Source: Myxococcota bacterium (GTDB lineage Bacteria > Myxococcota_A > SURF-8 > G963663525). Taken from it: a DNA stretch of 64,000 bases. The stretch spans positions 96,001 through 160,000 of the forward strand of contig CAXXVK010000053.1 of the NCBI GenBank assembly GCA_963676915.2, written 5' to 3'. The first letter of the stretch is position 1, and every line of letters starts with the position of its first letter. Positions 57,445 through 59,304 of this stretch are shown here, in pieces. Made by a program: the position numbers and the translations under genes. The notes under the pieces are model-generated. The model was not told the DNA's origin. It worked only from the letters and a program-made list of their open reading frames with translations, and searched no databases.

Positions 57445-57678
57445 AAAGAAACATATGAGCAAAGAAAAACAGCCAGGAAATGGATGAACTTTTTGCAGTT
57501 TTATATTTGTGCTTTTGGCTGTTGATTTTTGTTGTTTCTTTGGTTCTATTAACAGCTAAAGTCAAACAATTCTCAATCTTAAAGCAAGAATATAGATCTT
57601 TTCTTTTCATCCCCTGGAAAACACTGACTTTTCTTTTTGCGGCTGTTGGCCTTAACGCTGTAGCGACTGTGATTGAAG

Positions 57679-58611
57679 TCAAGCAAATTTTGGTTTCCAC
57701 TCCTCCCTATTTTTAAGCATAGTATTCATGATAACGAGGAGTTTCCGCATAGATGCGATGACGGTGGTCATTTTGGGTTTACCCATAGTGACGTGCCTTT
57801 GATTGAAGGCTCGAATCACAGGGTTGTGCTGGATGGCGGACAAAGTGGGCATGTACAGTTGGGTGCGCACTTGCCTTCTTCCACCACCGGTCATGCGTTT
57901 GCCTTTGAACGCGCCGCTATCTCGATTGAACGGAGCGACGCCGACGAGAGCGGCGATTTGGCGCCGGTTGTATTCACCCAGTTCGGGCAAATCAACGATC
58001 AGGCAGTGAGCCGTGAGCGAACCGATACCGGGAACGGTCATGAGGCATCGAACCTTTTCGGAGAGCGATTCGTTGCGTTGAACGATGCTCCGTATCGCCT
58101 CCTCGATGCTTTCGACGTTCTTGTCCAGAGCTTTGATGATCGTTTTCAGACTGCGTGCGACAAGCTTGTCGTCGGCGTGTTCCACACGGTTTTTCTCTGC
58201 TGTTCGCATATCGATCAGTTGCCTTCGGCGAGCCGCAAGGGCTTTGAGTTTCAGACTCTCGGGAGTGATTTTTCGCATGTGACGGGGCTGGACCAGTGCG
58301 GCGTAGCGAGCGATGAGGTTGGCGTCGATGCGATCGGTTTTCGCTGAAAGTCCAAGAGACTGAGCGAAGGCGCGAATACGTCGTGGATTGACGACGGCCA
58401 CATTGAAATTCCGTTTTTGCAGGAACTGGGCCAGGCGGTTTTCGTAGCCACCGGTGGATTCCATGGCGACCAGATCTGGCGCGGCGTTGCTGATTTTACG
58501 AAACGCTTTTTTCATTCCTGCTGGGGTGTACTCAAAAGTCTCGACGGTTCGGGACGAACCTACGGCCAGATCGAACGAAAGCTTGCTGATGTCGATTCCG
58601 ACGGTTTCCAT
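57679..58611 (-). CDS. IS110 DEDD recombinase/transposase (310 aa)
   Basis: [21 protein letters not shown] (DEDD), VPGIG, RDSG catalytic Ser, ASMRKL. Confidence 0.96.
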
Positions 58612-58614
58612 CTC

Positions 58615-58786
58615 GTTCACCCTTCCTTGCTCATGCGGGCTCATCGGTGTACAATGGCCCTAGCGACTGTTCGGGCTTCCCGGACAAAACGGGCGGCGGA
58701 TCCAGCTACACACGGGTTGAAAAACCCAAGGTCGGGACGATCTCGCCGCCCGATGCTCCCTGGGCGGCCGCCCAGGGAGCATCACC
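58615..58786 (-). ncRNA. Predicted bridge RNA (~170 nt): 5' stem-loop, target-binding loop, donor-binding loop
   Basis: 5' hairpin 58752-58783; target loop with LTG TCCCGACCT (58729-37) and RTG TGTAG (58706-10); donor loop with LDG ACAGTCGCT (58662-70) and RDG CAAG (58626-29) matching the junction ACAGTCG-CT-TG; exact RNA ends are estimates. Confidence 0.88.
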
Positions 58787-59304
58787 ATTTTACCACAACA
58801 AACACCTGAAAACTGACACAATAAAGATCATACAAGGTCCGTTTACCGGTGATCCAACGTGGGACTTTGCCACCGCAAGTTTCATGTCCGTATTCACGTT
58901 CTTGACTGCCCCCTGGACGGTCGGGACTCTATACAGGTCACTACGTGGCAAAGAAGGGTTCTTGCAAGTCTACGTAGCGATTTGCCTTTGGCTGTTTTCT
59001 GCAAGTTGGTCTTATGATCTTTACTTACTAATCCGCGATGGTTATTACCCTGTAACGTGGTCATCCAATTTACTTGCAAGCTCCATACTGTACTTGTGCG
59101 CAGGACTGTTTTGGAATCTTACATTTAAGTCGGGTAGAGGTGTCCACTTCGCTTTCACCGAACAAGGTTGGCCACAAATGGAATCCGAACAAGCATTCCA
59201 TCGCGTTTTCTGGTACGCTTTGCCATTCATGATTCTTGTTTCTGCAATGATTTTGTATTTTCTGCTTCCTGTTCGGTGGCAGTAATCACAGGTCGGGTCG
59301 TTTG

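Follow-up and report, generated by a model that had tools for sequence, protein, structure and literature searches.

The 64,000-nt stretch of DNA analysed here, hereafter the window (positions 96,001 to 160,000 of the forward strand of contig CAXXVK010000053.1, assembly GCA_963676915.2, from a Myxococcota bacterium), carries an IS110-type insertion sequence inside a gene for a membrane protein. The element reads on the minus strand, where a body of 1,171 bp (58834..57664), flanked by two CT dinucleotide cores, comprises a non-coding left end (LE), a recombinase gene and a short right end (RE) (Table 1). An earlier note, made from the sequence alone, had placed the element at 57662-58836 and had read the ~220 nt of non-coding sequence upstream of the recombinase gene as a bridge RNA that guides the recombinase. 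These positions proved to be the outer bases of the two CT cores, on which six genomic copies, the restored frame of the interrupted gene and the empty site of a relative agree, while LE measures 223 nt and folds as that note had described. We regard the element as an intact insertion sequence of the bridge-RNA IS110 group, with a probability of about 0.93.

Element limits and recombinase

The copies of the element start with CT-TGTATGATC and finish with ACAGTCG-CT. The two ends, TGTATGATC... and ...CAATCACAGTCG, do not repeat each other in inverted form, as judged by direct reading rather than by a formal scan for short inverted repeats. Removal in silico of the element together with one CT from the window left a single open frame of ~210 codons. 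A relative (G006) carries an uninterrupted frame of 212 codons, which showed 82% identity to the C-terminal piece of the split gene and aligned to the N-terminal piece as well. At the insertion point the relative reads ...GAATGGGC-CT-ACAGCGTTGAG, and the window reads ...AAACGGAC-CT-element-CT-ACAGCGTTAAG. Since a single CT in the empty site corresponds to a CT on either side of the element in the occupied one, the ends of the element are fixed to the base, the footprint is that of a single core, and there is no target duplication beyond the 2-bp core at the window insertion. The split membrane protein did not generate a hit in a Pfam search.

Table 1. Features of the IS110-type element and of the gene that it interrupts (positions in the window).
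Feature	Position	Strand	Basis or remark
Membrane-protein gene, N-terminal piece	57480..57661	+	frame restored after in silico removal; aligns to G006 frame
Right CT core	57662..57663	-	copies, restored frame, relative's empty site
RE, 15 nt after the stop codon	57664..57678	-	final 7 nt ACAGTCG (57670-57664) = left donor
-35 box TTGACT, overlapping the TGA stop (predicted)	57677..57682	-	after joining of RE-CT-LE, 17 nt from TATGAT
Recombinase gene, 310 aa + TGA	57679..58611	-	catalytic D7, E51, D93, D96 (RuvC-like), S232-G233 (Tnp domain)
LE, 223 nt, non-coding, bridge RNA-encoding	58612..58834	-	covariance model match 58609-58791, 143.7 bits
Donor-binding loop module, CCC/GGG-closed, inner stem GGGCCATTG/CGATG-A-GCCC	58620..58675	-	consensus fold and covariation
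Right donor guide (RDG)	58626..58635	-	CAAG 58629-58626 pairs with CT-TG; upstream CAT 58635-58633 can pair with LE ATG
Left donor guide (LDG) ACAGTCGCT = right-end 7-mer + CT	58662..58670	-	identical to 57670-57662
Target-binding loop module: outer stem, internal loop, inner GGGTT/AACCC stem	58691..58751	-	fold and covariation
Right target guide (RTG) TGTGTAG	58706..58712	-	GTAG 58709-58706 pairs with CT-AC; seven right flanks CT-AC
Left target guide (LTG) TCCCGACCT, 7 nt + CT core	58729..58737	-	left flanks of five copies (G/A)CCCGAC-CT
5' stem-loop, 14 perfect pairs, 4-nt loop GGCC	58752..58783	-	sequence and fold
-10 box TATGAT (predicted promoter complete only in the RE-LE circle junction)	58827..58832	-	overlaps right-donor bases read by RDG
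Left CT core (target core kept at the left junction)	58835..58836	-	CT precedes TGTATGATC in 6/6 full copies; relative's empty site with single CT
Membrane-protein gene, C-terminal piece	58837..59285	+	82% identical to G006 frame

The recombinase generated hits on PF01548 DEDD_Tnp_IS110 (4.7e-26) and PF02371 Transposase_20 (5.6e-18) in Pfam, and scored 218.2 bits, against a cut-off of 140, with the NCBIfam model NF033542, "IS110 family RNA-guided transposase". Its only relatives of solved structure (PDB) in phmmer were the recombinases of ISCro4 (8.1e-36) and IS621 (2.5e-30). The residues D7, E51, D93, D96 and S232-G233 align with D11, E60, D102, D105 and S241-G242 of IS621, which form the composite active site of that enzyme (Hiraizumi et al. 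2024, PMC11208158). All six catalytic residues are invariant in a 26-member family alignment. The length of 310 aa given by the earlier note presupposes a start at the ATG at 58611, which fits both the 309-311 aa of relatives and the position of a ribosome-binding site, AAGGAAGGG (58628-58620). A protein search yielded 6,859 matches at E <= 0.001 among 8,000 scored candidates, mostly of 309-311 aa and chiefly of 311 aa; the closest match was 95% identical and the following ones ~60%. Among 40 related genomes, a homologue at E <= 1e-40 was found in four (identities of 60, 60, 54 and 53%), several of them with eight matches each, and a genome of the same genus (96% complete) gave no match with this query. 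This patchy distribution fits a mobile element.

Bridge RNA, guides and their covariation

The minimum-free-energy fold of the left end (ViennaRNA; -88.2 kcal/mol, z -3.9, 0/200 shuffled sequences as stable) consists of three modules, a 5' stem-loop followed by a target-binding loop and a donor-binding loop. The outer stem of the target-binding loop pairs GGGCGGCG(A)GATC (58751-58739) with GATCCGCCGCCC (58702-58691), and its inner stem pairs GGGTT (58727-58723) with AACCC (58718-58714). The inner stem of the donor-binding loop is formed by GGGCCATTG (58660-58652) and CGATG-A-GCCC (58646-58637), and its closing stem, CCC (58675-58673) with GGG (58622-58620), which the earlier note did not have, was recovered by the consensus fold of the relatives. 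Every statement of that note about the sequence of the three modules on the minus strand holds. The 3' side of the donor-binding loop coincides in part with AAGGAAGGG, the ribosome-binding site, so that guide and leader would be supplied by a single transcript.

An Rfam scan gave no family that reached its threshold. The Xanthomonadaceae small RNA sX15 matched antisense (+ strand, 58615-58761) with 30.2 bits against a threshold of 55 (E 0.012), and mir-341 scored 20.5 bits against 90; both were rejected as sub-threshold. The antisense match may hint at an origin of sX15 from an IS110-type end.

For comparative analysis, 80 related loci from many phyla were fetched, and a covariance model was seeded with the window and 19 of them. 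In 79 of the 80 loci the model found a match immediately before the recombinase gene, and 60 of these matches lie outside the seed; the 80th locus is cut by a contig end. Standard pairs occupy 93.7% of cells, compared with 36-44% after a shift of the partners by 1-3 columns, and compensatory changes occur at 26 of the 29 pairs of the bridge-RNA structure. Among 73 distinct sequences, helices 1 and 2 of the target-binding loop are paired in 96.7% and 86.4% of cases, with compensatory changes at 12/12 and 3/5 pairs, and helices 3 and 4 of the donor-binding loop in 99.5% and 91.0%, with compensatory changes at 2/3 and 9/9. The RNAalifold consensus likewise recovers the target and donor loops. Fold and model together thus returned the three modules proposed earlier, in an RNA placed upstream of the recombinase gene.

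The location of this RNA bears on the group to which the element belongs. Elements of the IS1111 group, with their seekRNAs, share the protein family and the RNA-guided logic, and their guide RNA lies downstream of the gene. Both Pfam domains found here are common to the two groups, and so would suit a seekRNA-type element equally. However, the second NCBIfam model tried on the recombinase, NF051857, stayed below its cut-off of 180 with 79 bits, 79/80 relatives have the structured RNA upstream, and, with only 15 nt between the stop codon and the end of the element, no downstream RNA can fit. Membership in the IS1111 group is therefore hardly credible.

The guides lie in the two loops of the bridge RNA. 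LDG is a copy of the right end together with CT, and the bases CT+TG at the left end give CAAG when reverse-complemented; the RNA therefore spells its own donor junction, ACAGTCG-CT-TGTAT, as had been claimed. Outside the guides proper, C 58705 in the target-binding loop, located just after RTG, pairs with donor G7, and G 58625 in the donor-binding loop pairs with target C7. These correspond to the handshake bases of IS621, whose rule is that the guides pair with position 7 of the non-cognate, not the cognate, DNA (PMC11208158). A nine-base LTG, a four-base RTG and participation of the core in every pairing are also rules of IS621, for which discontiguous RDG pairing is known (PMC11208160).

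The agreement between guides and DNA was examined across the related loci. LDG positions 1-7 equal the 7-mer that begins 8 nt past the stop codon in 41 of 64 distinct rows, at this fixed offset, with CT next in 41, and the rare variants ACAGACG, ACAGGTG, ACAGCTG, ACCGTTG and ACGATTG each reappear at the right end of their own element. The reverse complement of RTG agrees with the five bases past the core at 4.05/5, compared with 1.44 after permutation (0/10,000 as high); 20 of 41 rows are perfect, and the 26 rows outside the seed reach 4.12 versus 1.41. As RTG covaries with five bases past the core, RTG in this clade usually reads core+5. LTG positions 1-7 agree with the left flank at 4.26/7, compared with 2.49 after permutation (0/10,000 as high). 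Of 71 distinct rows, 70 have a base after RTG that pairs with donor position 7, and in 1 this base pairs with its own target; for the base after RDG, 64 rows show pairing with target position 7 and 4 with its own donor. Pairing of this second handshake base with target position 7 holds in 9 of the 12 rows where that position is not C. The core complement AG is kept in RTG of 70/71 and in RDG of 69/71 distinct relatives. At the second core position of LDG, C is present in 30 of these 71 relatives and T in only 16, the DNA core being CT, so that LDG often mismatches the core T.

These data also bear on the view, held before 2024, that the left end of an IS110-family transposon is a mere leader and protein-binding end, in which case the loop matches would reflect coincidence or shared ancestry. 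The donor guide core ACAG(T/C)(C/T)G and CAAG are indeed strongly conserved in the clade, and the permuted LDG mean is already 4.40/7; part of the LDG and RDG agreement is therefore conservation, not covariation. The target guides, in contrast, differ widely yet track their own flanks to a degree that no permutation reproduced for RTG or LTG, rare LDG variants recur at their own right ends, compensatory changes cover most pairs of the structure, and the handshake pattern is kept. We consider the leader-only explanation very improbable. Covariation of the guides with junction and target among homologues, on which the earlier note had made its reading depend, is thus present.

The RE-LE junction of an excised circle would reconstitute a predicted sigma-70 promoter, TTGACT-17-TATGAT. 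A scan of the linear element for sigma-70-like promoters on both strands found 0 sites, in keeping with a promoter confined to the junction. Among the junctions of 29 distinct relatives, the stop codon is TGA at a fixed distance in 24, with TTGAC in 18 and TTGAT in 5 as read from the rows, and TATnnT stands as the -10 box in 27, with no change in spacing. Reconstitution of a promoter at the circle junction has been described for IS110 elements (PMC11208160). Taken together, family, RNA layout, donor and target guide matches, handshake positions and junction promoter all fit the IS621-type bridge RNA layout that the earlier note had recognised.

Genomic copies, target sites and proposed mechanism

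The genome contains six full copies of the element (listed at 100% identity), one 5'-truncated copy and one 57-nt left-end remnant. The left flank is (G/A)CCCGAC-CT at five of the six full copies, and CT-AC follows at all seven right flanks. The natural target is therefore CCCGAC-CT-AC, as TCCCGACCT and GTAG would pair. This sequence is the 3' arm of a hairpin resembling repetitive extragenic palindromes (REP), for example GTCGGGC-AAGAAATTT-GCCCGAC. Empty CCCGACCTAC sites number 133 in the genome, against ~11.5 expected from composition, and in 118 of these a GTCGGG arm is located <=30 nt upstream. Two empty cognate sites are found in the window itself, in REP-like double hairpins at 10735-10803 and 26444-26512 that end in CACCCGACCTAC. 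The base after CT-AC is A at 13 of the 133 empty CCCGACCTAC sites versus 3 of the 7 occupied ones, which weakly suggests a contribution of the third RTG base.

The truncated copy (G000:C58:1-480, L007) consists of the last ~345 bp, follows a REP target, and has the 9-bp CTACTTGCT on both sides. The solo remnant (G000:C60:183797-183856, L008) lies by a REP hairpin, has a core that is now AT, and stops at the start of the 5' hairpin.

The 310-codon frame is open in four copies including that of the window, and their proteins are 99-100% identical to the window's. In assembled contigs of four runs, the element appeared as a separate piece of high depth (28 versus 2-4 for the flanks; X1), and none of these contigs bridged an empty site at the window locus; no RE-LE joint was listed among them either, although contigs of this kind cannot reveal circle junctions or RNA ends. 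The sequencing runs listed for this sequence included none of RNA. Assembled contigs of a second study contained a variant of the element with 59 differences in 1,122 nt and the same end. The element has probably been mobile recently. Its copy in the window occupies the site AACGGAC-CT-ACAGC, inside the membrane-protein gene and without a comparable hairpin. The earlier note had attributed to the element a donor and target specificity of its own; the donor guides and the REP-like target at the five other full copies fit this, but the window copy itself is off the cognate target.

Several points weigh against the reading of an intact, guide-directed element. The left target of the window copy, AACGGAC, agrees with TCCCGAC at only 4/7 positions, and its right target, ACAGC, with ACACA at 3/5. 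Position 1 of LTG (T) finds no match at any of the five REP-sited copies, the flank base there being G or A; positions 3-5 of the right target vary at every copy; and a genome search for the full 14-nt target predicted from the guides, TCCCGACCTACACA, gave 0 matches. On the comparative side, the structure counts come from an alignment that was fitted to the model and thus favours structure, and only those entries that have a unique CTTGTAT, 49 of 80 (43 distinct; 31 dropped), entered the left-flank test, in which register shifts depress many of the scores. Finally, two of the full copies, otherwise identical, are frameshifted, G000:C22:8622-9808 (L003) by +2 bp and G000:C72:55440-56620 (L006) by +1 bp, the extra bases being either decay or assembly errors.

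Frameshifts in two of six full copies, a 5'-truncated copy and a solo remnant could also mean that the family is correctly assigned and the lineage is now inactive in this genome, its copies being relics and the in-gene copy the product of some other rearrangement. The circle junction had 0 matches in the assembly, though assemblies are not expected to hold one. The four open copies with their near-identical proteins, however, point to recent spread, and the in-gene copy has the exact ends and the single-core footprint expected of bridge recombination, so that we regard an inactive lineage as improbable and retain the intact bridge-RNA element as our interpretation.

The following model of transcription, circle formation and catalysis is a prediction built on the observed anatomy, copy number, exact ends, target consensus, catalytic residues, and structural and guide-DNA covariation. 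By homology to IS621, the element would excise as a circle in which the right end is joined to the left end. The join would complete the sigma-70 promoter TTGACT-17 nt-TATGAT, from which a bridge RNA of ~170-200 nt and then the recombinase message may be transcribed. The 310-aa DEDD/Ser recombinase would bind the bridge RNA, the donor loop of which (ACAGTCGCT and CAAG, plus CAT) would pair with both strands of ACAGTCG-CT-TGTATG, while the target loop (TCCCGACCT and GTAG) would pair with CCCGAC-CT-AC in the 3' arm of the REP-like hairpin, present in >100 genome copies. Strand exchange would take place at the CT core via phosphoserine intermediates, probably aided by C 58705 and G 58625 through their pairing with position 7 of the non-cognate DNA.

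A further idea, doubtful at present, is that the ~310-aa clade is naturally minimal (a 15-nt right end, a -35 box formed from the stop codon, a donor of ~16 bp, and a native 7-nt RTG) and that its cognate target is gated by the REP hairpin. The in-gene copy would then indicate that 8 matching bp beside the core (GAC-CT-ACA) suffice, in the absence of a hairpin, for rare insertion off target. If true, this would allow a smaller donor design and supply a natural rule for off-target sites.

The surroundings of the insertion contain other features of interest. A gene for an IS200-like Y1 transposase (56824-57276, - strand; Pfam Y1_Tnp, 2.2e-42) lies ~400 bp from the IS110 copy, and 56063-56797 (+ strand) encodes a protein with DUF2321 (6.2e-28), a DpnII/MboI-type restriction endonuclease domain (2.2e-50) and a weak double zinc ribbon. 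The split gene is bracketed by a 51-nt direct repeat (57397-57447 and 59305-59355, 88% identical; a weaker copy at 9165-9215), which contains a GGAGCA...TGCTCC palindrome. A repeat of ~170-200 nt is present in three copies in the window (17548-17749, 34657-34835 and 40916-41123; 87-97% identity), one of which is inverted.

Comparison with known systems

It is plausible that this element is uncharacterised, its only solved relatives being those of ISCro4 (8e-36) and IS621 (2.5e-30). The family, its mechanism and thousands of orthologues have already been described, and NCBIfam already names the protein family RNA-guided; the element does not alter the understanding of the IS110 family, and to a specialist it is complete but unsurprising. 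Bridge recombinases are under development as programmable tools for DNA insertion, excision and inversion. The element offers an annotated natural orthologue, in which guides, donor, cognate target, handshake bases, junction promoter and one natural off-target insertion can be read from the sequence. The clade to which it belongs is large, lies far from IS621 and ISCro4, and consists mostly of members of ~311 aa. Tables for the whole clade, covering the 15-nt right end, the 7-nt RTG and the LDG core mismatch, could help in selecting orthologues and designing minimal donors.

IS621 is reported, by Choi et al. in 2003, to insert into repetitive extragenic palindromes, and the REP-like hairpin target of the window element resembles this preference. 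The guide RNA of the window element lies upstream of the gene, unlike that of the IS1111 group. The IS1111 group and seekRNA elements are named in PMC13604230.

All insertions of the IS110 element ISPpu10 of Pseudomonas putida are, according to 10.64898/2026.03.19.712850, at copies of a conserved intergenic sequence that folds into a stem-loop 5' of the paired target, and the stem-loop of the target is a second determinant of specificity. The target of the window element is likewise borne by a hairpin, its left part CCCGAC being the 3' arm of GTCGGG...CCCGAC at 5/6 copies; unlike the ISPpu10 insertions, the window copy itself is at a site without such a hairpin. Off-target insertions are discussed in the half-match preprint, and the partial match of the in-gene copy recalls these.

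The best solved relative is ISCro4/IS622 of Citrobacter rodentium (PDB 9t56; E 8.1e-36 over residues 3-301), which has the same domains and catalytic motifs. Its recombinase is 88% identical to that of IS621 and has been engineered for human cells (Perry et al., 10.1101/2025.05.14.653916). ISCro4 is thus a close relative of IS621, outside the clade of the window element.

With IS621 of E. coli itself (PMC11208160, PMC11208158), the window element has in common the DEDD RuvC-like domain and the Tnp domain with its catalytic Ser-Gly; an RNA that precedes the gene and comprises a 5' stem-loop, a target loop and a donor loop (PMC11208160); 9-nt LTG and LDG that include the CT core, and 4-nt RTG and RDG cores of the GTAG/CAAG type; and discontiguous RDG pairing, handshake bases and a circle-junction promoter, the last of these predicted here. 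It differs from IS621 in its distant sequence (phmmer E 2.5e-30) and in a protein of 310 aa against the 328 residues of the IS621 PDB chain, in a right end of just 15 nt with the predicted -35 box overlapping the stop codon, and in its donor and target sequences. Moreover, RTG in the clade of the window element usually reads core+5, not core+2 as in IS621, and some orthologues with a longer RTG have been described (Durrant et al. 2024, PMC11208160).

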